This document shows positions 18,596 to 44,423 of a stretch of 64,000 nt of DNA, one piece after another; positions within the stretch are counted from its first letter, which is position 1, and each line of letters begins with the position of its first letter. Source of the DNA: Schmidtea polychroa (lineage: Eukaryota). Position numbers and translations under genes: made by a program. The stretch lies in contig CM097885.1 in assembly GCA_044892525.1 (NCBI GenBank), forward strand, positions 226,424,001 through 226,488,000. Reading direction: 5' to 3'. The notes beneath the pieces were generated by a model. The model made no database searches, was not told the origin of the DNA, and was given only the letters and a program-made list of their open reading frames with translations.

Positions 18596-19081
18596 ATGAC
18601 GGAATTCGTAGACCAGATACAACAACTAATCAACTTCATAAACATCGAGAATGACTCCCTTAAAACGCTGACACAAAAAAGAGAAAGAATTAACATCATA
18701 CTACTTCAAGCAATCGGGCAAACACCAGTCGTCCCCAACCACATGTTATTAGCCACAGGACTAAGTCACCCAGAGGGGAAGGTAAACCCGGAAACCGTGT
18801 ATCAATGGTATCAAGAGAGATTGAACCACCCAGCATTAAATCTTGATTATCAACGTATAAAAGATCCACTAAATACCATGTCAGATACAATCGAGCGGAA
18901 AATACAAGAAAAACTGACTCTACTACGAACTTGTCGTGCTTGTAAACTTCGTCCTATTCGCGTACTGTTTTTGCCGTGTGGACACCTCAGTCACTGCGAA
19001 GAATGTGTGAACGATTTAAAACGATGTACGATATGTAGGCATGAAATAAAAGAAACTCATATGGTTTATTATGGTGAATAA
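18596..19081 (+). CDS. IAP/MYLIP-type C3HC4 RING protein without BIR (161 aa), putative E3 ligase
   Basis: C-terminal CRACKLRPIRVLFLPCGHLSHCEECVNDLKRCTICRHEI. An acceptor-like TTTTTTTATAG ends 2 nt before the ATG. Confidence 0.85.
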   Translation: MTEFVDQIQQLINFINIENDSLKTLTQKRERINIILLQAIGQTPVVPNHMLLATGLSHPEGKVNPETVYQWYQERLNHPALNLDYQRIKDPLNTMSDTIERKIQEKLTLLRTCRACKLRPIRVLFLPCGHLSHCEECVNDLKRCTICRHEIKETHMVYYGE

Positions 19082-21382: not shown

Positions 21383-24300
21383 ATGACGAATGTCGTAAAA
21401 ACCGACGAGTATAAAGAGAAGTTCAGAGGAGAACCGTTCAACGGAAATGCAAACAAGCTAGCACCGTTCATAACTAATTTTGAAGTTTATATCACTGTGT
21501 GTGGATGGACACCCGAAGCAATTAGTAAAAGGATGCCGTTGTTTTTGTGCGATAGCGCATTAGAAGTATATTTAGAAGCTAAAGAGAGAGATACGAAATT
21601 AGAAAAGTGGGAAGATATCAAAACATTCCTGAAGAAAACCTTCGGAGCCAGTAAGCCAGTCAACCAGGCGTTGGGCGAACTAGCAAATAGGAAACAAAGA
21701 GTAAACGAATCGATAACATTATACGCCAGTGAATTGCGGAGATTAGCGAAGAAAGCAATGAATGGAAAATTACCCGAAGAAAATCTGATCGGTTATTTCA
21801 TAGAGGGATTACGCCGAGAAGAAGTAAGAGCCTCAGTAGGTTGTCAAATGTGCAAAACATTAGAGGAAGCCATAGATTGGGCTACAAGATGCGAGCTCCA
21901 CCTTCCAGCTCAAATGAATATTATGCAAGAGGAGGGAAGGATAGCGACAGCAATAGCGAAAGCGGATAACGGAGATAACAACAATCAAGAACTGAAAATG
22001 AATCAATTTATACCAGGAGCGCACCAAATTTTCAAACCACCACAAGGACGATCAAATGGGAATAATGGTAATCGTAACAACCTAAATAATGAGAACAATT
22101 TCAATAATCGACGAAATATGAACGATAACAAGCAGTGCCGAACATGCGGTAAACCAGGACACTGGGACAGAGATTGCTATAGAAATTCAAATTGTAATCG
22201 TTGCGGACGGCGTGGACATACCGAAAATGTATGCCAATTAAGAGGTTGTTTTAACTGTGGTCAGCCAGGTCACATCTCCAGAGATTGCCGAGAAAGGGGC
22301 CAACAACAACGACCACCACCGCGAAATAATAATTATATGGCGAATCCGCAAAGACAAAACAACCCTAGCGAAGGAAAACAAATGAACGTTATGCAGGAAA
22401 TCTCGCAGATGAAACAGATGATGCAACAAATGATGAGACCGAGACCGGAATCAGCACCACAACAAACCCAGAATATACGTATGATGAGGAGTACCGAAAA
22501 TCTCAACAATTATGAAGTGCATCAACATGTACAAGAATGGCAAAGACTACAGGCCGAGGAAGAGAGGATAAAACAAGAACGCAACCAACAACGACAAGAA
22601 CAACCATTGCGAATTAATATGATGAAGTTAGTAAAAGACATGAAAAGCCAGTATTGCTACAATTACGGGAAAAACCCAAGGGTAGTACCCATGACTGAAC
22701 CAGAAAAGGTAACAGAAACAACAACGGAAATGAAAACAGAGAATTCAACCACGATTTTAAAAGGAAACCAGAGAATTCAGAAAATATTCTGGAAAAAGAT
22801 AAAAGATAAAATCGAAAAAGAACATAATAAAGCGAAAGCCGAGACAGAAGATGAAAATAACAAGAGCAAGGAACAAACCAGTCAATTAAACCACCAAATG
22901 CTACAAGAATTAGAATCAGAAGAAACAACGATATTCGAAAGAAAGAAACTAAAGAGAGTACCAAGGATGAGAAATTTGCAAATCAATATGATGAAAAGGA
23001 CAAAAGATGTAGCATCGTCAGACGAAGAAGAAGATTATGTAAGTAGTTTGGGGGGAGAAATACTACAGCTAAACGAAATAAGCGAACCTCCAAAAGGGGA
23101 AATCAAAGAGGAAGAAAGCGAAAGCGAGATAACAAGTGGAAGTGAAGACGAGGATATCGAAATAAAGTTGAGAAAAGCAAGGGAGGAAGCGATAAAACAG
23201 GTAGCCGAAATACTCCCGGCGGTAGTGAGAAACCAAGAGTTCATCGACGTAATATCATTCAGGCGATTCGTGCAAAAAGTGATGAAATTGGAAAGAAACG
23301 AGAAAGATTTAATACCAAACGAGGAAAAATCAATTATAAAAAAGTATATGGAAAAAATGAAGCAGGCAGATACCACGCGGTATGTAATAAAAATCGGAAC
23401 GAGTAGAGGACTTGAAAGAATGTGGATAAAAAATACAGTCACCGACGAACTTTTCGATTGGATACGAGAACATTTGGGAGATTCGAGAAAGAAAGAATAT
23501 CTGTATCAATACCAAGGAGAACAGATCAAACCAGACATGCACTTAGTAGATGCACTAATATGGCCAGGAGAAACGCAAATACTGAAGTTGCATAAAGAAA
23601 AACAACCAGCCAACCTTTACGATTGGGCTAAAGACGCCAAGGCAGAATATGATTTTAATATCAAATTGAAATTAGAACAAATAAAACAATGTACTCTGAG
23701 ACGAAACCTGGATAAGCTGATCAAAAAAATTCAAGAACAAGTAGAAGACAACTGGGATTTACTCATCACCAGACGAGCCCCAGCCATGTACGAACTAATG
23801 ACCCAATTGCGAGATACAGAAATGCTCCGGATGAGTGATTGGAGAACCATAAATTTGATCCACAAATATGGAAGGTTAAAAGAAACCCAGCCACAGAGGT
23901 TGGAAATAACCATATGGTTACCGAACGAGGAAAAACGACGAATAAAAATGAGCAATCAGAGTACAGTGGATGACTTGGTATCAAAAATAAACCAAGAGAT
24001 AACAGAAAAGGTACGTAGCGAAAGTATTGATGGTATGGTGGATGATGTAGTCATGATGTACGATAAAATAATATTACGAGCGGAGGACGACACCTCGTTA
24101 AGCGAAATGGGTATGTGGGACAATCATCAGATAATCAGGATAGTACCAATGGATGAATTTCGAACAAGAGATGTAACCTATCAAAAAGAAATACGAGACC
24201 GGATGAAAACGTTATATCAAAAATCTACGGAAATAATTAAAATCCACCAACAATGGTTAAAAGAAAAAGAACTACAAGGAAAAATCACGAAACTAAGCAC

Positions 24301-26428: not shown

Positions 26429-28030
26429 AGAAATCGTATCAATACAACGAGAGGACTGTAAAGAGCTATTTAGAACCGGAGCGCTAAAAATGCATAACGG
26501 AGTGACGATTCACGGACAAACTGGAATGATTAAAACCGAAAGCGTTTATGTATCCGGAAAAGTAAAATCATCAGATGGGTCATGTAACGGAGGTACGTAT
26601 ACGATCCGAGGCGAGGTAATATCGGGAGTAGTAGTGATCGAGTCTTACACGGTCGAATTAAAAGAATACGAAGCGCAATTTGACGCAAATAATTACCAAA
26701 TGAAGACCAACCCAGCGTGTAGAGCTACAGAAAACGTATGTAGGACAGGAGTATCAACTATAATCTATGAAGCTAATACCCAAAAATGCCGACTCCAACT
26801 GTTAAAAAGTGCTTTGTTCAATGAAGTAAAAGGAGAAATATATGAGAACGAGAACGACGAGGATGGAAACGACAGAGTGAGAATGCGAAATGGAAAACCA
26901 ATGCCACCATCTCCCAGAGAAAAGAGACTTTCAACGCAGAAGACACCAACAGCATTAATCACGGACGATCCAGATCTAGGTATGAGATTTATCAAAGAGA
27001 AAGAAACCACCAAATGTGACAGTATAGTATATAAAACCAATTACGCAGGTATCTATATGTCGAGACAAATAATCGATAGAGCAGTGGGAAAGATAGCAAC
27101 GGAGGACGTAAAACTATACTTATATGCAAATAATAAAATGGATTTTCTATTTCATCGCGGACAAACGACCTTGCAAAAAGTATATTACGATCTGATACAA
27201 AACGATTGTTCATTGAATAAAGAAATATTGAAAACAAAGCTAGCTATTGCGATAACACACCCAGATAACACGATGCCATCACTCCCATTACCAGACGGAC
27301 ATTTTGGTAGAATGGTAGGAGAAGTGATGTACACATACCAGTGTACCAAGACGTATGCACGAATGCCAGAAAAATCCATACTACCCGAAAAGAGATGTGC
27401 AAACGAATTAGAAATCCGTTATAAGGGACAAAATCGATTCGTCCAACCAGTCACGAGAATTATGAATCCAGTGGGTTTCTACCCAAATCTCTTTAACTGT
27501 TCTAATGCATACGGACCTTTATACGAAAGACCCGATGGGAAATGGATGATGCTACCGGGAAAAACCATATCCGAGGAACCCAAGAAATTTGGATTAATAG
27601 AACTCGCCACAGAGCTGGATTTCAAACCTATAGACGTGTCAAACGGTGGTATGTATTCCCCAGAAGATCTAGAAACAGCACGACTTAACGTACTCTTCCC
27701 AGCCATACGAGAATCCATTTTGTCAAATATGGTTACAATAACGGGGGGAACAAATTATCAATCAGGCCCGAATTACGAGCTGCTACTATCGCCAGACCAT
27801 TTTCAACAAGCCACATCAAACATGATGAAAGCAATGTGGGGAAGATTCTTAGTTTTTGGACAAATGATGGCCGGAATACTGGGGATCATACTCATAATTC
27901 AGATAGTCAGGGTAATACTAACACAAATGTTAGCTTGTTTTGATATATACAAGCGAGAAAAGAAAGTAAATTGGAAAATGATAGTAGGCTTTTTACCATT
28001 TTTAGCTAAAACCATGGTATTACATGGTCA
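26168..28030 (+). other. env: Chuvirus-G/herpes gB-like class III fusion glycoprotein (split by a frame change near 26260)
   Basis: Signal peptide + YDC; C-V-x6-YYCG; DGSCNGG; NNKMDFL; C.L.KEIL; GEVMYTYQC; RCANEL...FVQPVTRI...C...GPLY; NGGMY; TM FLVFGQMMAGILGIILIIQIVRVIL. Confidence 0.75.
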
Positions 28031-31000
28031 CTCAAAAGACATCCATCGGATAAAGCGATTGATTAAAATCTTAACAAAGATTAAAGGAACAAACGAGGAA
28101 GTAGGTAGACGATTCCGAAAAACCATGTACGATGAAGCAACAAGAAGACAATTGAAAAAGAACAAGCCAAAATTCTTGGACCGATTTAGAAGCCAATCAT
28201 CTAACAGCGATAGTGACGACGATGATAACGGGAACGATAAATGTTTATATCCAAACAGAAACCCAAACGAAAAACCAATGGAAACGGCACCATATTGGGA
28301 AAAGGAAAAGACAAATACCTGGATCGCCAATGGAAGCTATATACCGCCAGATGTCGTGGGACCACAGGCAGCTTTGACCATGACACAAAACATGTATCCG
28401 CAATTACCGAGTCAACCCGGTATGCATTATATGCCAACACGACGTACCAAAAGTGTAGATCAAGCAGATGACGTAAGAACAATAGCAGCGATGAGCTTAC
28501 CTGGAGGTCCAGCAGTAACAGTCATGATTCAAATCAATGGTAAAGAAACCAATGCTATGATAGACACAGGAGCTAATGTATCAGCGATAGCGATTAATCA
28601 AATCCCCAGTAAGCACTGGAAAGATATCGAATCAACAACAATTCACATCATAGCATGTAGTAAAGAAACAGTGGACGTGGTCGGAAGATGGTGGACTACA
28701 TTGAGATACCAGGATAACGAAATCGAAACGTATTTGGCAGTAATACCAAACCTTAGCGTACCATGCATAATCGGAACGGACCTGATGCCGGAATTATTAA
28801 AAGAAGTGGTGATCGATTTAACAACCATGTGTTTAAAAGACAAAACAGGCAGAATATGCAAAATGAATGCCATAATCAGATGTCCAGAGAAAATTGTGGT
28901 ACCAGCAAAATCACAGATGATTTGTCAGATAAAAGTGGATACGGGTATGGAAGGAGAAGTTATCTTTGAACCAAGCAAGTCATTTGAAAAGCGACGAGAG
29001 TTACCACTCGCAAGGGAAATAATCACAATAAACCAAGAAGGAGTGATACCGCTCAACATCACGAATTTCGAAGAGGAAGACAAAATCATTTATGAGAACG
29101 AAAAATTGGGAAGATTGACCCCAATGATGGACATAGAATTACCGAAAGTGACCAACGAGATGATCAAAGATGATGAATTATGGACAATAGATAGTATGTT
29201 GTTGACGAATGATGAAAAGAAAAAATTGCACCGATTGTTGGTAGAATATAAAGATATATTCGCCATCTCAGATTTAGACTTGGGTACATGCGATGTTACC
29301 CTACATGCAATACCCCTCATAGATGAAACTCCAATTGCATTAAGACCATACAAGCTAGCAGAAATGCAAAAAGAAATAGCCGAAGCAGAAGTACAAAAGA
29401 TGCTAGACGCAAAAGTAATCGAACCGAGTTGCTCACCCTGGCAATTCCCAGTGGTCATGGTAAAAAAGAAAGATGGCACCCAACGATTCTGTATCGATTA
29501 TCGGAAGTTAAACGCAGTAACCAAGAGAGATACCTATCCATTGCCGGACATCAATGAAATGTTATTGATGTTGCAAGGGGCAGCATATTTTACTTCTTTA
29601 GATCTAAAAAGTGGATACTGGCAGATTAAAGTCAAAGATGAGGACAAAGAGAAAACAGCTTTCACGCTGGGACGAGATCTATATCAGTTCAGAAAAATGC
29701 CATTCGGACTGACCAACGCACCAGCATCATTTCAAAGGTGTATGAACTTCGTCACGCATGGAATCAAACAATGTATGGTATATATTGATGATTTGCTAAT
29801 CTATTCAGCGACATTCGAACAACATCTGGAGGATATCCGAAATGTATTTATTAGATTAAGACAATGGAAACTCAAGCTCAAACCTTCGAAATGCGATTGG
29901 GCAAAGGAAAAAGTCACGTTTTTAGGACACATAGTGTCAGCTAAAGGAAAGGAGCCAGACCCAAGAAACATTGAGAAAATAAAAACATGTCCAGCACCGA
30001 AAACTGTCACCCAAGTTCAGGAATTTCTAGGATTATGCGGATACTATCGCAAATTTATCAAAAATTATGCAGGAATTGCAAAACCAATCCAGGAATTAGT
30101 AAAGAAGGACATTTCGTTCATTTGGGGGAAGGAACAACAAGAGGCGTTCGAAACGCTGAGAGATAAACTAATCGAAGCACCTATCCTCGTACACCCAGAT
30201 TTTAAGAAGCCATTTCTATTGGCAACGGATGCAAGCGGGTACGCGGCAGGCGCGATTCTGGGACAATTAGACGATGAAGGAAAAGAGAGAGTAATCGGGT
30301 ATTACAGTCGAACATTCAAAAAGCACGAAAAGAACTATTCGGTAACAGAACGAGAAGCATTGGCTATAATACAAGCTATCAAACACTTCCGATATTTACT
30401 ATGGGGACATGAGATATGCATAACCACAGATCATCAACCATTAGTGTGGTTAGGGCAACATAAAGAAGCGTCCAGTAGACTGATGAGATGGGCCATGCAA
30501 TTGCAAGAATACTCCCCATTTATAAAATTCAAAGCAGGAAGAGCAAATGCCAACGCCGACTGTATGTCAAGATTTATTTTTCCAGATTTGGTGGATTCAG
30601 AAATGCAACGCATATGCTTAATAGTAGCGGAAGATTTGGATTTCTGTCAATTGCGAAAAGACCAACAAGGGGACGCGGAATTAAAACAAATTATCGATTA
30701 TGTAAAAACCGGAAAGACGGATGCATATGCGAAAGACCCAAAATTAAAAGAACATATGGATAAACACCGACACCGATATATTATAGAAAAAGATTGGTTG
30801 CTGATAATGGATGGAGAGAAGAGGTTAATGTGTATACCGGAAAACCGACGAAAAGAGTTACTAACGCAATATCACGATGGGAGATTGGGAGGACATATGT
30901 CATCGAAAAAGACGTTAGCAAGAATGAAACAGAAATATTTTTGGCCTACGTTAACTGAAGATGTAACCGAATGGGTAAAAAATTGTCTAACTTGTGCAAC

Positions 31001-34000
31001 CAGGAAGAATACTGGATCGAAATGGAAAGCACCTTTAACGCCAATGCCAGTACCAATAGAACCAATGACAATGATATCAATGGATGTAGTCGGTCCATTG
31101 CCAGAATCGGATAAAGGAAACGTTTATATTCTAGTGATTACAGACTTTCTCACGAAATTTCCAGAAGCATTCGCGATGCCAGACCAAAAAGCTAAAACAA
31201 TCGCAAAAATTTTGGTAGAAGAGATATGTTGCCGATATGGAACACCAAAACAAATATTAACCGATCAGGGAACTAATTTTATGAGTGAGATAATGAGCGA
31301 AGTAACAAATTACTTCAAAATAGCAAAACTAAGAACATCTCCATATCACCCTCAAACCAATGGGATGACGGAAAGATTTAATGGAACGCTTATACAAATG
31401 TTATCAAACTACGTCGACCGTCACCAACGAGATTGGGACGAATATATAAACCTATGTCTTATGGCATACAGAATGTCGATTCACGCATCAACAAAAATGA
31501 GCCCATTCAAATTAATGTACGGAAGAGAATGTAATATGCCAATGGACCTGGAATACCAACCACCGATATCGCAGTATATGGAGATCGACGATTATGTTAC
31601 GAAATTCAAGGAAAGGATGCAAGAAATTTGGGAAACTGCGGGATTAAATATCAAGTTCTACCAGGAAAGTTATAAAGATTTACACGATCGAAAGAAAAAC
31701 GTGAAGCAACATACGTTTCAAACAGGTGATTGGGTAATGATAGAAACCCCGGAATTAATTCCAGGAACCACAAGAAAATTACAACGGAACGGAAAAGGGC
31801 CATATGAGATCCTATTTGTAGGCGAAACCAACGTTAGAGTGAAGTTGATAAATAATCCATTCACCAGGCCAATATACGTAAACGTGGCACGATGTAAATC
31901 AATTCCAAAAACCGCCACCAGTCAACCGGAAGGTCGAACATTAACCACACGTTCGCAAACATACAGAATGAACATGATGCAACAACTCGCAGAACCTATC
32001 CCTGGACGATCGGGCATACAACCATCGGAAGCGGAAAAAATCGTACGAGAGGTAAAGATAAAATTACCCGGATGGGCAAAAGATCGATTAGATTTCGAAA
32101 TATTAGGAGGATTATTGACGATGATCGAAAACTATGCAAATAGAGAAAGGACACACCCGTTATTGCGAGTAGTTAAAAGTCAATGGCCAATATTATTTAC
32201 AATAACGGATCATTATGGAGACACACCATTACACAAACTCATGAAAGTAGGTAACAACGAGCAAATACTAGAAACAATAGAAGCATTTCACGACTGCAAG
32301 CGATCAACAGAACAAGAAAACAACCAAGGTTACACACCATTAATGATAGCAGCAAACAGAGGCAAAACCAAAGACATTATAACCGCATTACTTGATACGG
32401 GATCAAAAATAACTACACAAGACCACGAGCGGAAAAATGCACTACATCATGCTATCGAAGGGAAAAGTACCGAGGCGTTCACGTCATTGATGGAACTACT
32501 ATCATATGAGGACAATCGAGAAGTCGGAAACATGTATGAGGGATTGTTAACAGCGATCAAAGAAAAACTGACGACAATTACCGGAATATTAATTACATGG
32601 AGAAATCCAATTCAAAACGATTATATGATCAACGTAAACGAAGCGTTCACGAAAGGAGAGAACACGCTGATGAGAGAAGCTATGAAAGGACATCATTTAT
32701 TCGAAATTCCGAATCAATTACTAGAACGAGGGATAAAATTCACAAATCATAAAGATGAACAGTTAGCAAAAAAGCGAATCGACACATTCGAAAAATCAAT
32801 ATTCCAATTTACTAGCCAAGTACGAAATAAATATTGGGAAACGGTAAGTGTGTTATATATGATGGACACAATGAATAACATCCGCGAGAATTACCTGGAT
32901 ATTATCCAAATACTTACAGCAGAGGAACGAATCAATAATCCAAACGGAAAGAAAACGAAAATAAGGTATGAGAAACCGAGGGAATCAAAGTCAACAACGA
33001 ACCAAACGGTCACAAACCACGTCATTGAAACAAAATCAATGAGTATAGATCAAGAGGCAATAATACGCAAAGCAAAAGAAGTGTTCTTTGAGGAAATGCT
33101 AGAGCTGCCAGACGAAATAATATTGTCCAAAATAATAAAAGCCGTACACACATACGCAAGAGATCAAACCACGGGTTTAGATATCGGGAAAATCAAAACC
33201 TTCTTGCCTCGAGCATTTACGATGGTAACAAAGGATTCCCGAACACCTCTACAACAAGCAATATTAGCTGCAAAAGAGAATAGAGCAATAACGATCATGA
33301 GAATCCTTGGGGAGATGGGCGAGGAAACCAACACGAAAAATGAACAAGGTGAAACCGCCATGATGTATGCAGCTATAACGAAAATACACCCAAAAACACT
33401 CCACATCCTACATCAATCAGGATCGAAACTAGACGAAAGGTCCAATGAAGGAAATTCCACCTTGGACTGGGCAACCATACAACTAAACTTAGAAATGATC
33501 AGATTTATTTGCAAAAATGCGACAAAAGAAGAAGTTGAAAATATGTGCAAAAACACATCTCAGTTTCAATGGAATACGGTACGGAAAAATCTAGAAGCAA
33601 TGAAATTATTATTAACCTGGAGAGTACCACAAAATAATAAATATGCGATAAATGTAAACGAATTCTACGAAAACGGAGAAAATGCGATGGTAAAGAATAC
33701 CCTAACTAAGGGGGGGACGCCTAAAATTATTTTAATAGTATTAAATAGAGAAGACCTAAAATTCACGCAAAATCAGAACGAGCAACAACGAATTGGGAAA
33801 CATCGTCGTATGCAATTGAGAGAGTTAGTTAAAGAATGGAATAGAAAGAGACATGCTGCAACGGGTAGAAAAGAGTTTGAATTCGAAGCAAAATTAGCAA
33901 GAAACAGAGTGCTAACAGCATATCGCAGATTATTGAACGATATAAATGTCGAGGACGACATTTTAAATGACAGCGGGGGAGATAAACACGATGACAATGA

Positions 34001-35186
34001 TGGAAAAGGCCGGAAAGAGGATAAAGGGAAAAGAGAACCGGAAGAGGATAAACCGGAAAACAAGGATTCGGATACGAAAAGAGAGGGAAACAGGCCGGGA
34101 ACCAAGACCAAAGAGGAGGAAAAATCGAATAATGGAAAACAGAGGGTATGCCTACCTTTCACTAACAAAGAAATAGAGACAAATATGATATTAATGATAA
34201 TTATGCTTACCATGATAGAGTTAGTAACAGCTCAGGGAGGGACGAGAACGATAAAAGAAACCAAAGAAGCGGAGAATCAAGATAGCAAAGAGGATGAACT
34301 AAAGCAAGAAAAGAAAAAGCAAGCACAAGAGCAGCAGTGGGATTTAAAGGAAGAATGGGACTTAAAGGAAAGGTGCATACTAGGAAGATGCATGTCTAGA
34401 GCGTATCAGAAACTAGTACTGATAAATGAGGACACAGAACCAATAACAGAAGTAAGAATACAAGAAGCATACCGAAATCGAGACGGGAAGAGAATAACGA
34501 ACGTCAAAGGAAAAGAGGTACACCTAGGAAAAGGTGGTGAGGTAGTAATAACGCAGCTCCAACCTAGAAAAGAGCACAAAGTCTGTATTTCAAGATTAGG
34601 ACCAGGTGAGAGATGCCATCAATATGTGACACAGCAGCAGCCGCCGAAAGAATACACGGTTTGTATCTGGAGGAATGAATCAAAAAGAGAATGCCGACGA
34701 TACCCGGGGAAAAGAGGAAAGAAAAGAAAAAACCACGACGAAAAGGACGAAGGGGGAAAGCACAAGAAAACCGGCGAGGAAGCTCAGGACAACTATGTTT
34801 CGGAGGAAGAAATGGAAAAAATACAAAAGATGGCAAAGGAGGGTATGAACGAGGAAATAGCAAGAATACGAGAGATGATGGAAGGAAATGGCAAAAAAGG
34901 AAACGAGAAAAGTACAGAAGCGATATCAACATTAACAAACAAGGAAAAACCAGAGAGTATAAGCGTGAAGCAGATGATGTGGATCAGTGGGATAATAATA
35001 ACAGGGGCATTCCTAATCATAACGGGGGGAACAATAAAAATAATTAAAGATAAACGACATCGCGGAGAACTAGAGATGACCCAAATCAGAAATTTCCAAC
35101 ATCGAGTGAAACGACCAAGTGATATCAAACAAGAACAGTGGGTGGAGGCCTGGAACGCTCAGCGCCCTCCAAACTCACGTATATAG
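26352..35186 (+). CDS. pol: Env-Pol polyprotein: class III fusion glycoprotein body, TM, aspartic protease, RT, RNase H, integrase, 2 ankyrin modules, second type I membrane protein
   Basis: The frame is open from 26262. PR AMIDTGANVS (DTG 28563). RT YIDD (29781). RNase H LATDASG...EREALA...TDHQPL. Integrase H-H-C-C zinc site, DVVGPL, TDQG, ERFNGTL and GPYEI. Ankyrin GDTPLH/GYTPLM/KNALHHA and SRTPLQ/GETAMM/GNSTLD. Confidence 0.95.
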   Translation: MVSKKVLAYYCGQYSYSTLILPGLDKEIVSIQREDCKELFRTGALKMHNGVTIHGQTGMIKTESVYVSGKVKSSDGSCNGGTYTIRGEVISGVVVIESYTVELKEYEAQFDANNYQMKTNPACRATENVCRTGVSTIIYEANTQKCRLQLLKSALFNEVKGEIYENENDEDGNDRVRMRNGKPMPPSPREKRLSTQKTPTALITDDPDLGMRFIKEKETTKCDSIVYKTNYAGIYMSRQIIDRAVGKIATEDVKLYLYANNKMDFLFHRGQTTLQKVYYDLIQNDCSLNKEILKTKLAIAITHPDNTMPSLPLPDGHFGRMVGEVMYTYQCTKTYARMPEKSILPEKRCANELEIRYKGQNRFVQPVTRIMNPVGFYPNLFNCSNAYGPLYERPDGKWMMLPGKTISEEPKKFGLIELATELDFKPIDVSNGGMYSPEDLETARLNVLFPAIRESILSNMVTITGGTNYQSGPNYELLLSPDHFQQATSNMMKAMWGRFLVFGQMMAGILGIILIIQIVRVILTQMLACFDIYKREKKVNWKMIVGFLPFLAKTMVLHGHSKDIHRIKRLIKILTKIKGTNEEVGRRFRKTMYDEATRRQLKKNKPKFLDRFRSQSSNSDSDDDDNGNDKCLYPNRNPNEKPMETAPYWEKEKTNTWIANGSYIPPDVVGPQAALTMTQNMYPQLPSQPGMHYMPTRRTKSVDQADDVRTIAAMSLPGGPAVTVMIQINGKETNAMIDTGANVSAIAINQIPSKHWKDIESTTIHIIACSKETVDVVGRWWTTLRYQDNEIETYLAVIPNLSVPCIIGTDLMPELLKEVVIDLTTMCLKDKTGRICKMNAIIRCPEKIVVPAKSQMICQIKVDTGMEGEVIFEPSKSFEKRRELPLAREIITINQEGVIPLNITNFEEEDKIIYENEKLGRLTPMMDIELPKVTNEMIKDDELWTIDSMLLTNDEKKKLHRLLVEYKDIFAISDLDLGTCDVTLHAIPLIDETPIALRPYKLAEMQKEIAEAEVQKMLDAKVIEPSCSPWQFPVVMVKKKDGTQRFCIDYRKLNAVTKRDTYPLPDINEMLLMLQGAAYFTSLDLKSGYWQIKVKDEDKEKTAFTLGRDLYQFRKMPFGLTNAPASFQRCMNFVTHGIKQCMVYIDDLLIYSATFEQHLEDIRNVFIRLRQWKLKLKPSKCDWAKEKVTFLGHIVSAKGKEPDPRNIEKIKTCPAPKTVTQVQEFLGLCGYYRKFIKNYAGIAKPIQELVKKDISFIWGKEQQEAFETLRDKLIEAPILVHPDFKKPFLLATDASGYAAGAILGQLDDEGKERVIGYYSRTFKKHEKNYSVTEREALAIIQAIKHFRYLLWGHEICITTDHQPLVWLGQHKEASSRLMRWAMQLQEYSPFIKFKAGRANANADCMSRFIFPDLVDSEMQRICLIVAEDLDFCQLRKDQQGDAELKQIIDYVKTGKTDAYAKDPKLKEHMDKHRHRYIIEKDWLLIMDGEKRLMCIPENRRKELLTQYHDGRLGGHMSSKKTLARMKQKYFWPTLTEDVTEWVKNCLTCATRKNTGSKWKAPLTPMPVPIEPMTMISMDVVGPLPESDKGNVYILVITDFLTKFPEAFAMPDQKAKTIAKILVEEICCRYGTPKQILTDQGTNFMSEIMSEVTNYFKIAKLRTSPYHPQTNGMTERFNGTLIQMLSNYVDRHQRDWDEYINLCLMAYRMSIHASTKMSPFKLMYGRECNMPMDLEYQPPISQYMEIDDYVTKFKERMQEIWETAGLNIKFYQESYKDLHDRKKNVKQHTFQTGDWVMIETPELIPGTTRKLQRNGKGPYEILFVGETNVRVKLINNPFTRPIYVNVARCKSIPKTATSQPEGRTLTTRSQTYRMNMMQQLAEPIPGRSGIQPSEAEKIVREVKIKLPGWAKDRLDFEILGGLLTMIENYANRERTHPLLRVVKSQWPILFTITDHYGDTPLHKLMKVGNNEQILETIEAFHDCKRSTEQENNQGYTPLMIAANRGKTKDIITALLDTGSKITTQDHERKNALHHAIEGKSTEAFTSLMELLSYEDNREVGNMYEGLLTAIKEKLTTITGILITWRNPIQNDYMINVNEAFTKGENTLMREAMKGHHLFEIPNQLLERGIKFTNHKDEQLAKKRIDTFEKSIFQFTSQVRNKYWETVSVLYMMDTMNNIRENYLDIIQILTAEERINNPNGKKTKIRYEKPRESKSTTNQTVTNHVIETKSMSIDQEAIIRKAKEVFFEEMLELPDEIILSKIIKAVHTYARDQTTGLDIGKIKTFLPRAFTMVTKDSRTPLQQAILAAKENRAITIMRILGEMGEETNTKNEQGETAMMYAAITKIHPKTLHILHQSGSKLDERSNEGNSTLDWATIQLNLEMIRFICKNATKEEVENMCKNTSQFQWNTVRKNLEAMKLLLTWRVPQNNKYAINVNEFYENGENAMVKNTLTKGGTPKIILIVLNREDLKFTQNQNEQQRIGKHRRMQLRELVKEWNRKRHAATGRKEFEFEAKLARNRVLTAYRRLLNDINVEDDILNDSGGDKHDDNDGKGRKEDKGKREPEEDKPENKDSDTKREGNRPGTKTKEEEKSNNGKQRVCLPFTNKEIETNMILMIIMLTMIELVTAQGGTRTIKETKEAENQDSKEDELKQEKKKQAQEQQWDLKEEWDLKERCILGRCMSRAYQKLVLINEDTEPITEVRIQEAYRNRDGKRITNVKGKEVHLGKGGEVVITQLQPRKEHKVCISRLGPGERCHQYVTQQQPPKEYTVCIWRNESKRECRRYPGKRGKKRKNHDEKDEGGKHKKTGEEAQDNYVSEEEMEKIQKMAKEGMNEEIARIREMMEGNGKKGNEKSTEAISTLTNKEKPESISVKQMMWISGIIITGAFLIITGGTIKIIKDKRHRGELEMTQIRNFQHRVKRPSDIKQEQWVEAWNAQRPPNSRI

Positions 35187-35346: not shown

Positions 35347-35706
35347 ATGGATCAAGGAAATAACGAAATGAACCACAATACAGTAACTGAAGAATTATGG
35401 AAGCAACAATGTGCCGTATTAGCACAATTAGTGTCCAATTTGCAAGAACAAGGATTGACGATGCACAGAAACCTAATCGAGAGTATGAATAGAGGATTTA
35501 GTTATTTGAAAATAATTGAAGACCAGAGGTTGAAAATCGAACAAATGCAAAGAGAGATAGAGAGGATAACCCAATATAGCCGTAGACAGGAAATCGAGCT
35601 AGACAGAATGATGGAGGAAGCAGAACAGACAGAAATAGAAGACTGGTCGGAATGGCTAATGAATAGAGAGGAGAGCGGACACGAAGCCGACTCTTCCGAA
35701 CCCTAA
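35347..35706 (+). CDS. Small coiled-coil accessory protein
   Basis: ATG at 35347 within the track ORF 35323-35706; heptad-like Q/E/R-rich; homologue in element 1. Confidence 0.65.
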   Translation: MDQGNNEMNHNTVTEELWKQQCAVLAQLVSNLQEQGLTMHRNLIESMNRGFSYLKIIEDQRLKIEQMQREIERITQYSRRQEIELDRMMEEAEQTEIEDWSEWLMNREESGHEADSSEP

Positions 35707-35791
35707 ACCAAACCTAGCTTAAAATGTAAATAATTGTAAATAAAATATCGAACCTGTATCGATAAGAACTATTTGTACATATAATTATAGA

Positions 35792-37180
35792 ATGGATAAA
35801 CGACAAAGAGAAGAGTTCAGAGAGATTGTCGAGCAAGTCCGAAAATCTACAACGATCAGAATACACAAACATGTTATGTGCGGAATATGTGAAAAGTTGT
35901 TAAAGGAACCTCACCAAACGCAATGTGGATGCAGAGTATGTAAAGAATGTATCAGTGAAGCAATAAAGAATAGACCACAGAGGTGCCCGGTGTGTAAAGA
36001 GACACTAATATCGAGTTTAGAAGACACTAACGAGGATAAAGCCGCAGTGAAAGACATGTTAAACACCAATCTGGGATGTAAAAATGCCCCATGCGAATGG
36101 AAAGGAGTAATATGGAAGGTAGTACAACATATGGGAGAATGTATGTACAGAATTGGCCAGTGTGAAAGGTGCCATAAAACCATTCGAGCAAGCGAAGAAA
36201 AAGAGCATCAAAGGCAGTGTGAAGAGAGATTAGAAAGATGTGAACACTGTGGAGAAATAGATACGTGGAAAAATCTCACCCTCAAACATCACAATGTCCA
36301 AGAGGAGAGAGTATGTGCAGAGTTCAGTGGGGAATGCCCAAACGGATGTAACCAAGGGGAAATAATGAAGGTGGCACAGCATCTAAGGGAATGCGAAAAG
36401 AAAAGAATGACATGTGTACTAGGTAGATGGGGTTGTCAGAAACTACTACACCGAGGTGAGTTACCACATCATTTAGTAGAAAATGCTTCAACCCACGCAG
36501 AAATGTGGTCGACTGCGTTACAAGAAAGCGAAGAGAAAGTAAAACAAATGGAGATAGAGATAACATCGTTGAAAGTGTTAGTCAAAGAACTACTAGAAGA
36601 AAGGGAAGCGTTAGAAGAAGCCCGAGCAAACATAAAGATGCAAATAAACCGAATAGAAATCAGTAATAATCAGGCCAAGGAGCTACATCAGAAAATACGG
36701 GAAATAAATCTAAATGAGATAACCCCAACAGCACCCTACATATGGAAAATAACGGGAGTAAAAGAAAGAATACGAAAAGCAAAAACCGGAGAAGAGACAA
36801 GAATAACAAGTCCTGCATTCCATTCTTGGAAAAATGGGTACAAAATGAAAATGAAGATATATCCCAACGGGGACGGAACCGGAGTAGATACGCACTTTTC
36901 GATTTTCTTTCTGTTATGTAAAGGGGAATACGACGAAATAATAGAGTGGCCGTTCCAGGCAAAAATCGATATTGCACTAATGAATGACCGAAGCATCCAC
37001 GAACAAAGCTTCAAGACAACTGGAAACCAAATGTGTTACCAGAGACCTACGGCAGAAGAAGGATCAGCAACAGGAGCACCTACGTTCATCCTACAACAAA
37101 AAGTAGAAGATATGGCAAGAAATGACACGGTGTATATCAAGATGACCGTGAGGAAAGAGGAGAAGGGTAGAACGGAGTAA
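35792..37180 (+). CDS. TRAF: Full-length intronless TRAF-family protein (RING - TRAF zinc fingers - coiled coil - MATH)
   Basis: RING CGICEKLLKEPHQTQCGCRVCKEC...CPVC; tandem TRAF-type zinc fingers; MATH motifs YIWKI, SPAF, GYKM, YPNGDG, HFSIF, KGEYD, EWPF, YQRP. Confidence 0.93.
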   Translation: MDKRQREEFREIVEQVRKSTTIRIHKHVMCGICEKLLKEPHQTQCGCRVCKECISEAIKNRPQRCPVCKETLISSLEDTNEDKAAVKDMLNTNLGCKNAPCEWKGVIWKVVQHMGECMYRIGQCERCHKTIRASEEKEHQRQCEERLERCEHCGEIDTWKNLTLKHHNVQEERVCAEFSGECPNGCNQGEIMKVAQHLRECEKKRMTCVLGRWGCQKLLHRGELPHHLVENASTHAEMWSTALQESEEKVKQMEIEITSLKVLVKELLEEREALEEARANIKMQINRIEISNNQAKELHQKIREINLNEITPTAPYIWKITGVKERIRKAKTGEETRITSPAFHSWKNGYKMKMKIYPNGDGTGVDTHFSIFFLLCKGEYDEIIEWPFQAKIDIALMNDRSIHEQSFKTTGNQMCYQRPTAEEGSATGAPTFILQQKVEDMARNDTVYIKMTVRKEEKGRTE

Positions 37181-37373: not shown

Positions 37374-38429
37374 ATGACACAAGAGAAAATAACCGAAACT
37401 GCGATAGCCCCAACCAATGTCAACAAGACACAAATTCCCCGAGAACATAACAAAAAATGGAACAAAGTAATGTTCCAACTAACTAATCTCACCCGAAATC
37501 ACATCGAAGAAACTAGAGAGGATGAGAATAGTCAATACCAATGGTTAATACACAACTTAAGAGCGGAAGCAGAAGCATGCAAAAGAGCATCAAAATGGGC
37601 GTCACTAGAAAATACCCGCCAAGAAGCGCACAGCCACTACTTAAAGCAGCTAGTGCAGGAAGCGAGAAAGAGACTTACCGATGAAAACACCAAGCGCGAA
37701 GCGGAAAAGCAAATAGAAGGAAGGAAAATGATGCACTTAGTGGCAGAAGCGAGAAAATGGAAAAGACAAAGCAATGAAATAAAAAAAGAGATGAAAGAAT
37801 TGCCCATGAGACTCGGATATGAGAGCGAACAGGGTAAATGGGAGGAAAATTTAATAATAAAGGAAGAACTGAAACGGTTGAAAAAGGTCGCCGCCCGAAG
37901 CCAAACATGGCAGATGAAGGCTATGGAGTTTGAACGACATTTGGCAATAAAATGCGACATAAGAGAGCACGAGAATGCCGCAATGGAAGAGATGATAACC
38001 CAGCAAGCAGGACGGGTTGTAGAATTAGTAAATCAGGTCGAAGAGATGAAAAGAGACCTTAATGGATTACAAGGATCGTTAGAACAAAGAAACATGGTCC
38101 TGGCGAAAAAAAACAGAAAATTAGAAAACGAGAGGAAAATGTATACCGAAAATATCAAAAACTTGGAAATAGAAATTGAAAGATGGAAGGGCGACGAGAA
38201 AATCAAGGCCTTAGATAGACAAGTAGAGGCGAAAGACGAAGAGACAAGGTATCTCACTTATCTGCTCGACGAAGAGCTGAATATCACTCGAGCTCTAAGA
38301 GACGAAGTTAATGAATTGAGAGCTCAAATCCCCCAATATTACCTACCCTATGACCCTATTGCGATACAGTTGCATCCAGCGGTCGATAGTGATGAAGGTT
38401 ATGTGGGACAGGAGGAAACCTTCGTATAA
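37374..38429 (+). CDS. Orphan long coiled-coil protein (351 aa)
   Basis: Intact ORF with E/K/R/L heptad character and the element's A-rich codon usage; AATAAA at 38435. Confidence 0.75.
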   Translation: MTQEKITETAIAPTNVNKTQIPREHNKKWNKVMFQLTNLTRNHIEETREDENSQYQWLIHNLRAEAEACKRASKWASLENTRQEAHSHYLKQLVQEARKRLTDENTKREAEKQIEGRKMMHLVAEARKWKRQSNEIKKEMKELPMRLGYESEQGKWEENLIIKEELKRLKKVAARSQTWQMKAMEFERHLAIKCDIREHENAAMEEMITQQAGRVVELVNQVEEMKRDLNGLQGSLEQRNMVLAKKNRKLENERKMYTENIKNLEIEIERWKGDEKIKALDRQVEAKDEETRYLTYLLDEELNITRALRDEVNELRAQIPQYYLPYDPIAIQLHPAVDSDEGYVGQEETFV

Positions 38430-38577: not shown

Positions 38578-39339
38578 ATGTATATGTATAAGTCACACTA
38601 TAGCGCACCATTAACTGTACATATTACAGATATGAAAATCGAGGAAATAATAGAAATTACGAGCGACGTAGAAGAGGGAGAGATTGAGGCAGAAACAACA
38701 GAAACACAAACGTTAAAGGCCAAGTTACGGGAAGAGAAGTACGAAAACGAGAGACTAGTAAACAAATATATAGAAGACCGAAAAATGATTAAAATACTAA
38801 AGAAGGAGTGCGAAGCGTTAGGAGAAATAAAGAGAGAAGCTGAAGAGAAGAATGAATGGTTGCAAGAACAAAGAACACGAGGAAGAAACTGGGAAAAGAT
38901 TGCAGAGGAACTATGGCAAGAGAGGGCAAGCTTCAAGGCAGAAGAAGTAATCCAGGATTATTGGAAAACAGAGGCGAAAGAACACCAAATAACTATAAAT
39001 AAATTAAATCGACAATTGGAGGAAAAACAACGAGAAAGTGAGGAAATGAAAAAATGGATTCGCAAGTATCAAGAGATCGAGAGAAAACAACAACAACAAC
39101 AACAACGAAACCTTTCGCAGGAAAACGAACAAGATTTCCTACAAATCGAACTAAAAAGGAATCTCGACAAAAAACGGGAAGAAATTAAGAGACTGAAAAA
39201 GGAGATAAGGCACATGAAAAGGGAGGCCCGTGAAAAGAACAGACAGTTGGAAATGCTGCCCGAGTTAAGACACAGAGTCATTAAAGCGGAATCCACCCTG
39301 ATGAGAATCGCCGAAAATAACCCAAACCAGAATCATTAA
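38578..39339 (+). CDS. Orphan coiled-coil protein (likely start ATG 38632)
   Basis: E/K/Q/R-rich helical ORF; an acceptor-like TTACAG ends at 38629, just before ATG 38632. Confidence 0.7.
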   Translation: MYMYKSHYSAPLTVHITDMKIEEIIEITSDVEEGEIEAETTETQTLKAKLREEKYENERLVNKYIEDRKMIKILKKECEALGEIKREAEEKNEWLQEQRTRGRNWEKIAEELWQERASFKAEEVIQDYWKTEAKEHQITINKLNRQLEEKQRESEEMKKWIRKYQEIERKQQQQQQRNLSQENEQDFLQIELKRNLDKKREEIKRLKKEIRHMKREAREKNRQLEMLPELRHRVIKAESTLMRIAENNPNQNH

Positions 39340-39380: not shown

Positions 39381-39950
39381 ATGTATAATAGTATCATGCG
39401 AGGCGAGATGATGATAACAATGACGGTATTGATGATTCTGACGGAGAACAAACAAGTAAACGCCCAACCGAAAATCGTGCGAGATTACCGAAATCAAAAT
39501 CAAGAACCTAAACGAGAATCCGGCCAATGCACATACCCTATGACAGTAAAAATCCATATCATCCAAACCCTTCAATCAACCCGTTCACACATCAACAACA
39601 TCCAAACAATGTGTAAAAAGAATCCCATTTGTAAAATGATAAACAAACAAATCCTCGAACAAATCCAACAATTCGACCAGTTAGAACAACAAATGCAACA
39701 AGAGAATTTTGAAAATCTTGTAGAAAAGCCAAAAACACCTCCCGAAATCAATGACACCCATTATCTCATATATGTGGTGATCGCAGAAACCCTCCTCCTA
39801 TGTCTACCAATACTCATGAAGATTTACGAAGTTAGAAATAAATGTAGAATCTCGACACCAATAAGAGTAACCTCGAACAGAAATCCTCAAGAAGTGCCGC
39901 TGACAAATCTTAACCCAACCCCATTCCGACCTCGAATCCCGAGTAACTAA
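39381..39950 (+). CDS. Small predicted type I membrane protein
   Basis: N-terminal hydrophobic MMITMTVLMILT, helical ectodomain with 3 Cys, TM YLIYVVIAETLLLCLPILM, Pro-rich tail. Confidence 0.6.
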   Translation: MYNSIMRGEMMITMTVLMILTENKQVNAQPKIVRDYRNQNQEPKRESGQCTYPMTVKIHIIQTLQSTRSHINNIQTMCKKNPICKMINKQILEQIQQFDQLEQQMQQENFENLVEKPKTPPEINDTHYLIYVVIAETLLLCLPILMKIYEVRNKCRISTPIRVTSNRNPQEVPLTNLNPTPFRPRIPSN

Positions 39951-40273: not shown

Positions 40274-43200
40274 TGTTGGGCTGAGTCGAAGGGTAGTTGG
40301 GAAATTAGGGCAAACTTAACTAAAATAAAATAAAAAATAAAAACAAATAAATTGACAAATAAAATAGAATAAAACATAAGAAAAACAATAATTAGAAAAT
40401 AGGAATTAAAACAAAAAATATAAAGATGAGAAAAAATTAAAATAGGACAATAGAATGGCGGAAAACAACGTAAAATATAGTAAATAATAAGAAAATTAAG
40501 GAAAATAAATAAAAACATAATTTTAATAAAGAAAGTAAGAAGAAATAACTAAAAAAACAAGGAAAATAAATTAAATTAATAAAATTAAGCGGTACTCAAT
40601 TCTAATTGGTCCGCGCAAACAAAAAATTAATATATAAGCAGGCATTAAAAACATAACAATTACTGTTAATCAAACCACCTCAATAGGTAAGTGAAATTTA
40701 AACAATACCACTGTTAATCAAACCACCTCAATAGGTAAATCTATTCTACGACAGAACAGAACTCCAGCAACTAACGCACGATAACTCACGAGGACAATTC
40801 CAAGATTCAAGAGATTTTTACAGAACTAGACGATATTCGAGCATTAACTGATTCGACATAGTACCCTTTTCGACTCAGCCCATACTTGTATCAATCATTC
40901 GGTAAGGATTTTTGATTGCTTATTTTGAATTTTTAAGTAATGCGTATAGTTTAATAATATTTTTAATTTAAAAAAAATGGTTTTTCTTTTCGTTTGATTT
41001 TCGAATGCTTTACTTAAATTAATAATTTGCTTAATAATAAATGATTTGCTCGTTAAGAATTATTGATCTTTTATGAATTAATTTGTATGAATTATTGGAG
41101 ACTATTCAATTTTGCGAGAAACGTGGCGTTGAGATACTCTATGTCATGGTGTGAGGTGCCTTCGGAAGCTCCACCGGTGGACATAGGGTATTTCAATCAC
41201 GCAGCTAGATTGGGCCGAAATGTGAGGGCTTCTTCACGGGTCCAATTGCTGAAGGTGCGACTAAAATCTATAGGTAGATGGTGGCAGAAAATTGATAGTC
41301 ATGTAGTGATTGAAAACAAAGATATGTAAGAAAGGAATCGGGGAATTTTGATGTTTTCGCGCAGTGATTGAGGGTGTCACACTATCGTTTTCGAATGTCG
41401 TGTTTGCTAAGAAAAATTTTTTCTCCATCATCAATGTAAGTTGTGCGTCAAAAAGTGTTCAAACCTTAGTGAGGCTATCTGTGACATATCTTCGATGCTC
41501 ACACTTTTCACTCAGAATCTGTTCCGACCAATTGTTAGCCTAAAACCCTTTGAACTATTATTCCGTTCACCTAAAAGTTCTCTTAAAGACATAGTTGCAA
41601 GGAAGCTCAAAGTAGATTGCTTCAGATAATTATTGGAATTATTCCAAATGACTGTTTACGGATAAATTGTAGAACTACGTAAAATAATTTATTACAGATA
41701 ATTGTTAGAACTTCATAAAACGAGTTTGTTCCAAATAAAATTTTGAATTACATAAAATAATTTACTTCAATTAAATTTTTTTGAATTATATAAAAATATT
41801 TACATACAATTAATTATCATAATTACATAAACTATTGGCATCAAATAATTTAACAACAAAAAATGCAACCAATTCGAACCAAGAAAATATATTTCTTCAA
41901 GTTAGCCGATAATCTTGTTAAATACGAAATTCCAGTATTACATGAGGTTGGCAATCCAGCAGAGATAGGAAAAAAATCCTCCAGCACTTAGAGAGTAGAT
42001 TGGTAAACTAGGCTTGAGTAATTAAAGACGAAAAATCCACCCTTGGAGCAAGCTATATCCAACATTTGCAATACAGATAATTATAATTTTTCCAATAATC
42101 CGGTGAGAATTAGTAAATCATCACCATATGCCGTAGAATTGTGAGCGAATACGCGGTGGATAAAATTCTGAGAGAATGCCATCATGCAAACATTCAACGC
42201 CTGCATTTGTAGTATAATTAAGTGTGTGAAAGCGCACCTTGCATGCGTCACCAGTTGCAGACTTACCTAATAGCCAAGTACAGTAGGCAAAGTCACACAC
42301 GCATCTACTCATGTAAAATTAGATCGAACATGCCAATTAAACTACCGACAGCTATCAGATTTCACCGCTCCGGATTAAGAGTCAATCACTGGGCTGACAT
42401 TACCTTATCTACCCAGCAGGTATGGTCGACTACTAGCTCACACTGATACCGTGCTCAGTTGTTATAAAGACACTAATTTTTAATGATAAACTCGATCATA
42501 ATTATGATTATTCTCTCTTTATTATCTTAGCATGAATGGCACCGAAATTATTTCATTTTTTGACATAGTTATCATTAATATTAATATCGAATATTGTTAA
42601 ATAAATATTATGTAAACCAGGTAAAACATATGTGAGTAATTAAAGAGAATGAATAAACAATTAAAAATTTAAATAACCTTCCGTTTATCCTGTAGGAACT
42701 AATCAACAGGCATTATGGACCCCTTTTCCATAGATAGTCACTCGACCCCAGTATATGATACACTCATTAAAAGCACTCGTACGGGGGGAGAAGTCGACAA
42801 TTTAAATCGATTCTCGGTAAACGTGAAATAATGACTCCAAGCGGATTAAATAAATAATCATTTTCATCGACCTAGAATTTCTCTCACAAATAGTAATATC
42901 TTCCTTTTCCTTGTGCGAAATCTGGTTTGATCGATTTATCTCCTTATAATTAAAGCCCCGAAAGGGTACGAGAATCCATCGCGTAGTAGAACTTGTCTTG
43001 ACTGGTAAACCCATATTTTTGTCTATGATCAGTACAGTATGAATGTAGTCAGATGGTGACACTCCCGCTGATTTAATTATTTTCATTTTCTTTTTCACAG
43101 TCGCTCAAAATGTTGCCAAATTCCAAGCCCGTTCTTCGACCTTGTTTTTCTTGCTCCGACAAGAATTCAATTATCAAAGAGCTCCAGGCCCAAATCGAAA

Positions 43201-44423
43201 AGCACAAAAGAAGGATAGATGAGTTAGAGGGGACATGGTTTAGTCCCACCCAGATGAAGGAGGCTCAGAAGAAGCTGCACCGAAGCGAGCACTGTAGAGA
43301 CGCGTTGATTTCCGAGAGTCGGGCGCAGAGGAGCCTAATAAAAGAGCAGTCGGAGGCGCTGCACAAATTATACGTCCAGGCAGCAACTACAAGGAAGATC
43401 GCGAAGATCCCAATAAATGAAGCCAGTAACCTTTTCCCAGCACATCATGATATCTCTGGCGGGTCTTCTTCTCCAGTCGGAAAGTCCTGCCATGGGTGCG
43501 TGGAGACCGAGCTCTCACCTAAAGAACCAGAAATCATCTTTACCGGAACCAGTAAAGTGCTACCTGCGATAGCATCCACCTCAGCAGCACCCTCGACCAA
43601 CCAAACAGCATCGAAGCCAAAGCGTCGGCAATTATCGAGAGCAGAACGAAAGAAAAAACAGCGGGAACGCATAACCGCCAAACAGAACCAGAAATCGTCG
43701 GATCATCCAATCAAAGTCATCAACCCTCCTGCAGCAATCGATTTAGCATCAGTGATCTCAGGGCGAATCATCTCCGCCGCTGGTGTTACCTGGGAGGAAA
43801 ACGCCTCTGAGTTTTTCGATTTGGAAGATCTATTGGCAGACTCGGAGTGGGAGAAATGAGAACTTCCCCGTAAAAAGTCTTCGTTCTTTGAATTGACCTG
43901 AACATTATCTGATAACATTTTACCTTGTCTCTTTTCCCGTTGTCGTGGACTTTATTGTATAGGTGTTAGATATATTTGTGTGATAATCTTAATAATAAAC
44001 CATTTTTGTCTGCATACGTTTTTTCTTGTGCCCATCTTAAGACAGTTGAGTTGAAATTGGTAAATGGTATTGAGAGTCATAAAATCATGAGGAGCATTAG
44101 TCAGTTGGTAAACTCAGCTAGAAATATTGCGATGGGGCGACGGAATGAGTAGACGTAAGTCCTTCTATCGGCAGTCAGGGTTGGGAAGTCGAGGCCTCAG
44201 TAAGGAGTAGTCCGAAGGAGCTGGCTCACCTGCTTACTGGCGTCTCGCCGGCATAGCACAGTTCCAACGTGAAGCAATTCACGGGTGCTATGTTGGAGTG
44301 TAAGTTATGTACGGGTCCCGCTCGGCGATGACCAAATAAATGAGGGGCGAAATCGAGGTGGCATTCATCCTCTAGACTAAAGTTACACTAGAAAGGGGTC
44401 ATCCGAGTAGTGTACCCGCAACA
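40274..44423 (+). repeat. Element 2 3' LTR (4150 bp)
   Basis: TGTTG...CAACA; copy of 14277-18270 plus 156 bp (43160-43315). Confidence 0.97.
43110..43859 (+). CDS. LTR-encoded protein, full-length copy (249 aa), putative regulator
   Basis: CxxC, coiled coil, second CxxC, basic KPKRRQLSRAERKKKQRER, acidic-hydrophobic end EFFDLEDLLADSEWEK. Acceptor AG at 43099-43100; AATAAA at 43994. Confidence 0.65.
   Translation: MLPNSKPVLRPCFSCSDKNSIIKELQAQIEKHKRRIDELEGTWFSPTQMKEAQKKLHRSEHCRDALISESRAQRSLIKEQSEALHKLYVQAATTRKIAKIPINEASNLFPAHHDISGGSSSPVGKSCHGCVETELSPKEPEIIFTGTSKVLPAIASTSAAPSTNQTASKPKRRQLSRAERKKKQRERITAKQNQKSSDHPIKVINPPAAIDLASVISGRIISAAGVTWEENASEFFDLEDLLADSEWEK

Follow-up and report, generated by a model that had tools for sequence, protein, structure and literature searches.

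Why should a retroelement carry a complete TRAF gene, from where was the gene acquired, and what might it do there? These questions are raised by a 64,000-nucleotide stretch of the Schmidtea polychroa genome (hereafter, the window), in which an intronless ORF with the apparent domain order of a TRAF resides between two LTRs. Published work is cited by PMC number.

A TRAF ORF within a 30-kb LTR element

The ORF occupies positions 35792-37180 of the plus strand as one open frame of 462 amino acids, and encodes a whole RING/five-zinc-finger/coiled-coil/MATH TRAF. Its host element spans 14277-44423 (30,147 bp) and is a gypsy-order LTR element with PR-RT-RH-IN. The features of the gene and of the element are given below, where "family B" denotes a second element family described in the next section.

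35792..37180, plus strand: complete TRAF ORF, 462 aa (Pfam, solved-structure matches, AlphaFold2, Foldseek)
35879..35995, plus strand: C4C4-type RING, with ligands C30, C33, C45, C47, C50, C53, C65, and C68 (Pfam, alignment)
36077..36496, plus strand: five TRAF-type zinc fingers, aa 96-235, whose ligands align with those of host and fish TRAFs
36497..36715, plus strand: TRAF-N coiled coil, predicted helix 232-308 (AlphaFold2 model)
36737..37150, plus strand: MATH/TRAF-C domain (Pfam, solved-structure matches, alignment)
37028-37036, plus strand: Q413-M414-C415 in place of the serine finger (alignment)
14277..18270, plus strand: 5' LTR, 3,994 bp, TG..CA
18278..18296, plus strand: primer-binding site, identical in family B, which we take to be tRNA-Pro-like
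18596..19081, plus strand: accessory ORF with IAP-type RING (PF13920); family B orthologue
21383..26428, plus strand: gag-extended half of the polyprotein, with gag, CCHC knuckles, and weak ubiquitin-like and Bcl-2-like matches
26490..35186, plus strand: Env (Monjiviricetes-type fusion)-PR-RT-RNase H-IN-ankyrin half
35347..35706, plus strand: small accessory ORF that immediately precedes TRAF in both families
35707..35791, plus strand: spacer before TRAF, with three TGTAnATA copies, AATAAA, and an AT-rich tract with TAG one base before the ATG (candidate 3' end signal and candidate splice acceptor)
37374..38429, plus strand: accessory ORF, coiled-coil-like; family B orthologue; purifying selection
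38632..39339, plus strand: accessory ORF, coiled-coil-like; family B orthologue; purifying selection
39396..39950, plus strand: accessory ORF with signal-like and transmembrane-like stretches
40274..44423, plus strand: 3' LTR, 4,150 bp, followed by the TTAA target duplication

Pfam recognizes both ends of the protein. The MATH family PF22486 matches aa 316-453 with an E value of 3e-26, and PF21355 is also above its cut-off; the RING family PF00097 matches aa 30-68 and is barely over the cut-off. Among solved structures, the C-terminal part matches TRAF3, TRAF1, and TRAF2, and the RING-zinc-finger part matches TRAF6, TRAF5, and TRAF2. All eight RING cysteines and the five zinc fingers are found in the element TRAF in a 35-row alignment. 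An AlphaFold2 model (mean pLDDT 91, pTM 0.48) has a 77-residue helix (232-308, high pLDDT) followed by a MATH sandwich. Foldseek ranks TRAF domains first among matches to this model, with TRAF3, TRAF1, and TRAF2 at E values of about 1e-18.

Judged from sequence and model together, the ORF has the domains that define the TRAF family, namely a C-terminal MATH domain, a TRAF-N coiled coil, and an N-terminal RING with zinc fingers. These results, together with the LTR bounds, confirm the original prediction of a complete TRAF inside the element. A word-index homologue search with the TRAF gave one match among 3,551 candidates, and none of the 119 pattern matches in a metagenome scan was confirmed.

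The A-rich, element-type codon usage noted originally is also borne out. Base frequencies at four-fold sites are A 0.53 and T 0.10 in TRAF, versus 0.53 and 0.11 in pol. Synonymous-codon log-odds are +0.17 bits per codon towards the element for TRAF, and -0.02 to -0.20 for six of six host genes. A segment of the host RNA polymerase largest subunit (Rpb1 domains 2-5), found at 49027-51873 of the window, served as a host codon control.

The gene order of the element is IAP-type RING ORF, gag, env, PR-RT-RH-IN, ankyrins, and five accessory ORFs, of which TRAF is the second. On these sequence features, the element is classed as a planarian Burro type. No more than two mismatches and a single 156-bp indel separate its LTRs (TG..CA), which marks the insertion as very young. 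A frame change near 26340-26490 interrupts the polyprotein of the window copy; many other copies have a 4,732-aa open frame. The env match (PF24664), of a mononegavirus-like fusion type, precedes the protease. The gag half has no MATH domain at the polyprotein site where family B carries one. Its ubiquitin-like (E = 0.006) and Bcl-2-like (E = 0.025) matches both fall short of the cut-off, and PDB and Atlas searches with these segments gave no match. The small ORF at 35347..35706 matches no Pfam family; its Atlas matches, at 0.9 with low recognition, were not used.

Each LTR also contains an ORF (17113-17706 and 43110-43859) that lacks a Pfam match. The 156-bp indel is in frame, giving 197 versus 249 aa.

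The insertion, flanked by its TTAA duplication, interrupts the 3' LTR of a family-B-like element that has lost internal sequence; the empty TTAA site is visible in the 5' LTR (L154) of that element. In this deleted element (window positions 1-14276 and 44424 onward), the gag half and the pol tail are fused in a 1,473-aa ORF at 3179-7600, and a broken remnant of TRAF is left at 8310-8473.

The spacers between ORFs have recurrent signals. An AG is found 0-4 nt before the ATG in all 13 accessory ORFs of window positions 35187-40100 and of family B (L147-L148), and YAG in 11 of these 13, against spacer backgrounds of 0.23 and 0.08, respectively; the 13 include orthologous pairs and are not independent. 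Every one of the 11 inter-ORF spacers has TGTAnATA, with 19 sites listed versus a shuffle mean of 1.2; of the 20 plus-strand sites in the window, 12 fall in 35187-40100. This motif resembles a Pumilio element or a 3' end signal. Together, these sequence patterns suggest an operon-like accessory layout with one mRNA per ORF. AATAAA was also considered as a spacer signal, and was rejected because it is not enriched (13 sites versus 11.5 in shuffles). Four sequence runs proved to be contigs of uncertain type, one with genomic flank; they have no splice joint at the TRAF start and are neutral for expression.

Copies, selection, and a second family

To sample the family, 60 of the best 150 RT matches (two rows in every five) were taken and the downstream 10 kb of each was read. 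In this sample, which was picked on near-identical RT and so favours young copies, TRAF is intact in 57 copies, partial in two, and absent from one truncated copy. The same 60 copies have an intact RT-RNase H in 56 cases and an intact integrase in 51. Of 1,969 candidates from a genome-wide protein search, 92 were scored. Each of these is 95-100% identical and 91 lack a stop, although the match list is biased towards intact genes. Thus, the TRAF of the window is not a one-off, and the absence from other copies that was to refute the original prediction is not observed.

The dN/dS of TRAF copies compared with the window copy is 0.04-0.26, which is not the neutral decay that the original prediction had named as a refuting outcome. 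Comparisons with a sister subfamily, which keeps TRAF at 73% DNA identity, give 0.04-0.08 with dS above 2. When eight pairs were analyzed by domain, values were 0.06-0.31 for RING and, where unsaturated, 0.07-0.12 for MATH. The single high value, 0.57 for the coiled coil, comes from one pair with only three synonymous changes. Within the main subfamily (43 rows, with L087 and the sister subfamily excluded), pN/pS for TRAF is 0.16 in shared variants versus 0.29 in singletons; the corresponding values for RT are 0.01 and 0.08. TRAF is a selected accessory gene, with purifying selection on all of its domains.

In the copies L061-L120, identity to the window copy jumps between genes; for example, L061 is 98% identical in TRAF and 77% in the ankyrin region. 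These abrupt changes suggest recombination between subfamilies.

A search with P0005, the closest outside homologue of the TRAF (35%), uncovered a second multi-copy whole TRAF, which defines family B. An intact full-length element of this family is located as follows.

G000:C1:218081806-218115995 (L145-L148): intact full-length family B element, 34 kb

Its genes are, in order, a RING ORF, a 4,688-aa polyprotein with a stand-alone MATH domain, a small ORF, the whole TRAF, a BIR-RING IAP, two coiled-coil-like ORFs, and a membrane-like ORF. The family B TRAF (474 aa) is located at the syntenic site and is 29% identical to the window TRAF; the RT and integrase of the two families are 92% and 81% identical, respectively. 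The BIR-RING IAP directly 3' of TRAF is missing from the window family. Family B therefore has two MATH domains, of which the polyprotein MATH is more host-like in the serine-finger loop. Of 1,908 candidate family B TRAF copies, 90 were scored, and all 90 lack a stop. Whole host signalling genes are rarely kept long-term by retroelements, and here one has been kept across two families with so little identity between their TRAFs.

Origin of the element TRAF

The named close homologues of the element TRAF are triclad TRAFs. In a mixture-model tree of 24 rows, the TRAFs of both element families and P0005 form one clade (100/99), although the composition of element rows differs and a common A-rich bias could draw these rows together. 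This clade is nested in a larger planarian one (100/100), with the TRAFs of fish and other animals outside it, a result that answers the originally proposed phylogeny against host TRAFs. The 24 rows were taken from a 48-row set, for which eight partial or motif-less proteins had been dropped, and a quick tree of all 48 agrees. The AU test rejects (p-AU 0.004) a topology that places the window family within the TRAF2-like clade of the host. In a 44-row tree of MATH domains only, the two families are not joined and the polyprotein MATH is not placed. An element context for P0005 and P0020 is suggested by the position of these proteins in the tree.

A single ancient capture from a planarian host TRAF is likely on this evidence. 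The fact that TRAF occupies the same position in both families provides independent support for one capture.

The original prediction proposed that a captured mRNA gave rise to the gene. The host derivation holds, as the gene falls in the planarian TRAF clade, but the lack of introns is no proof of an mRNA intermediate because the closest host TRAFs also run from RING to MATH in a single frame. Six such host genes (L149-L153 and L035) have host codons, and no element genes were matched within 10-kb stretches around them. The cysteine in place of the usual histidine in the RING (QCGCRVC), which had also been singled out, is present in the element. It is a trait of the host clade and does not point to viral adaptation; the C-G-C RING is found in all six of the host single-frame TRAFs examined and in TRAF-2, -4, and -5 of Dendrocoelum lacteum. 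Among 152 proteins, this position is His in 67, Cys in 21, and another residue in 15, with no motif match in 49. Because host planarian TRAFs share both traits, neither the cysteine nor the lack of introns reveals the capture route. Template switching onto host RNA is the default route for an LTR element.

Among the 150 matches listed for a MATH search of the genome, most reside in element-length frames. A cluster of many similar host MATH frames of about 180-205 aa is located at about 114.7-121.5 Mb of G000:C2 (L031-L057). This cluster is a host TRAF expansion distinct from the element copies.

Possible functions and known systems

All eight RING ligands, together with I32, P66, and K69, show no variation among the intact copies that span these positions. 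RING positions of the I32, P66, and K69 type generally form the E2 surface. The family B RING lacks equivalents of I32 and of the basic residue at 69. In the MATH domain, Y357, D361, and F372 are invariant among intact copies, position 355 is K or R, and A429 stands where TRAF2 has C469.

In TRAF2, the serine finger (S453-S455) contacts the Gln at the centre of Px(Q/E)E tails (PMC6125299). The receptor-binding class also has a polar pocket (R393, Y395) and a hydrophobic pocket. In the element TRAF, Q413, M414, and C415 align to the SSS of TRAF3, and none of the 57 copies has a serine there. These positions also differ among subfamilies (M, I, L, or V at 414; C or A at 415). By alignment, the element TRAF thus seems to fall outside the TRAF1/2/3/5 receptor-binding class as defined by its serine finger. 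The simplest reading of the RING and MATH residues is that the protein may be a ligase or adaptor with changed partner choice. Of the two roles originally proposed, an E3 ligase fits the invariant RING, whereas a classical receptor decoy is doubtful, given the loss of the serine finger.

We favour an explanation, with a probability of about 0.5, in which the Burro TRAF was captured once and functions as a ubiquitin-ligase adaptor that tilts host TRAF signalling towards survival of the element-bearing cell. The TRAF would obtain its own mRNA through use of the AG that immediately precedes its ATG as a splicing or trans-splicing acceptor. By analogy with TRAF2, which docks cIAP, the coiled coil and MATH domain would trimerize and either mix with host TRAFs or dock an IAP. 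The RING would then ubiquitinate partners that the altered groove selects in place of classical PxQxT receptor tails. The outcome would be reduced apoptosis or reduced innate signalling in the cells that support element replication. Partners in this outcome could include the IAP-type RING protein and Bcl-2-like segment of the element and, in family B, also the BIR-RING IAP.

We infer the direction of this effect from the IAP-type neighbours and from two published observations: knock-down of host planarian TRAF is lethal and raises cleaved caspase-3 (PMC7586133), and the Burro1 IAP shields stem cells from apoptosis, as reported second-hand (PMC13465017). Against survival, the family B RING is less canonical, and a characterized viral TRAF, ORF111L, is pro-apoptotic (PMC3352826). 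A TRAF-IAP pair cannot be general because the window family lacks the BIR-IAP. TRAF2/3/5-type RINGs are often poor stand-alone ligases, so conserved zinc ligands are no proof of activity.

A wider version of the survival explanation, which we consider unlikely, holds that the once-captured, rewired TRAF and the IAP/RING proteins of the element form an operon-like survival cassette with separate expression that rebuilds a TRAF-cIAP-like ubiquitin complex. Its hundreds of intact mobile copies might then explain part of the planarian TRAF expansion and of stem-cell stress resistance.

The absence of the serine finger, the variation at 413-415 among subfamilies, and the invariant RING would also fit a role in which the altered MATH groove grips a restriction or silencing factor of the host, or a protein of the element, and the RING sends it for degradation; cell survival would then be beside the point. 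PIWI controls Burro1 (PMC8532177), and planarian TRAFs are TBK1-induced immune genes (PMC13563047), both of which are in keeping with such counter-defence. However, the whole MATH domain is under purifying selection, with no domain-wide excess of change, and the neighbouring genes are of apoptosis type. We regard this counter-defence role as unlikely.

The retained coiled coil and modelled MATH fold, along with Y357, D361, F372, and the basic residue at 355, could serve a pure decoy that disables the TRAF trimers of the host or occupies receptor tails and needs no ligase activity. A decoy would require neither a RING nor five zinc fingers, but the ligands of both hardly vary among copies and are common to families with 29% identical TRAFs. 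Moreover, the finger that would grip PxQxT tails (PMC6125299) has been lost, which makes this role quite improbable.

It is similarly doubtful that the gene is kept mainly for host gain, such as stress survival or regeneration, instead of for element replication. The Burro1 IAP is a second-hand precedent (PMC13465017), and hundreds of intact copies amount to a large gene dose. Nevertheless, the lower pN/pS of variants shared between mobile copies than of singletons fits filtering during element replication, and the decayed family-B-like copy in the window let its TRAF break. Host benefit is also compatible with, and not exclusive of, the survival-adaptor explanation. Finally, no observation favours a recently captured neutral passenger, which is refuted for practical purposes by dN/dS values far below 1 over saturated synonymous distances, by the family B orthologue, and by the element-type codons.

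An LMP1-like element membrane protein with a TRAF-binding tail was also considered, and is rejected for now because no conserved motif is found in 14 aligned copies of the last ORF (39396..39950) or in eight polyprotein tails. As for assays of the survival adaptor, the NF-kB reporter proposed originally would be a poor read-out because no clear immune NF-kB homologues could be identified in a planarian (PMC13563047).

The element is closely similar to Burro/GYPSM1 (PMC6431247), which has a length of about 30 kb, 4-kb LTRs, a very long ORF, env between gag and protease, PR-RT-RH-IN, ankyrins, and accessory ORFs. The Burro/GYPSM1 ORF of 4,700-5,100 aa with in-frame env is matched by the 4,732-aa frames of the window family. 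The published domain list includes MATH_TRAF_C, BIR, ankyrin, and BCL2-like domains, and in Dugesia tigrina Burro, MATH_TRAF_C resides in a separate upstream accessory ORF (PMC6431247). Therefore, the original statement that no retroelement is known to carry a whole TRAF was too strong. Unlike the available text on Burro/GYPSM1, which describes MATH_TRAF_C only, in ORF1 or an upstream ORF, the elements studied here carry a whole TRAF downstream of pol. The published Burro1 list is a better fit to family B than to the window family; the MATH in ORF1 and the BIR-IAP are absent from the window family, and family B has both in addition to the whole TRAF.

The TRAF MATH domain in Burro (PMC6431247) and a virus-encoded TRAF (PMC3352826) are thus already known. 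A whole RING-to-MATH TRAF in Burro is not described in the main text of the literature searched; Jurka 2007, Grohme 2018, and Lee 2026 lie outside this scope and may have one. As far as this literature extends, four points are new: the anatomy of the whole gene, the selection on it, a receptor-binding serine finger that is lost although the RING stays invariant, and the apparent operon-like accessory layout.

Host planarian short TRAFs also resemble the element TRAF. These include the six single-frame genes noted above, Dendrocoelum lacteum TRAF-2/-4/-5, Dugesia japonica TRAF2-like A, and Smed-TRAF-2A/B (PMC7586133). Most are 442-469 aa in length, with the C-G-C RING, the same zinc-finger spacing, and 26-31% identity. 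Unlike the element TRAF, they have host-type codons, and those of the TRAF2-like clade still have the first of the finger serines. Planarian "TRAF" transcript counts and RNAi (PMC6109357, PMC7586133) may take in element-borne copies.

Among viral structures, the top named Foldseek matches are megalocytivirus TRAFs. A megalocytivirus TRAF, ISKNV ORF111L, is virus-encoded and has a RING, a coiled coil, and a MATH domain (PMC3352826). It differs in its length (296 aa), its origin in a DNA virus of fish, and its clustering with fish TRAFs, and it binds TRADD and drives apoptosis through caspase-8 (PMC3352826).

With the Burro TRAF, the suggestion that Burro interferes with apoptosis and ubiquitination in its host (PMC6431247) can be tested directly. 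The B-IAP of Burro1 is also a host-derived apoptosis/ubiquitin gene carried by Burro, although a different gene from TRAF (PMC13465017). The TRAF adds a second gene to the story of the Burro1 IAP, one that is present also in a family that lacks the IAP.
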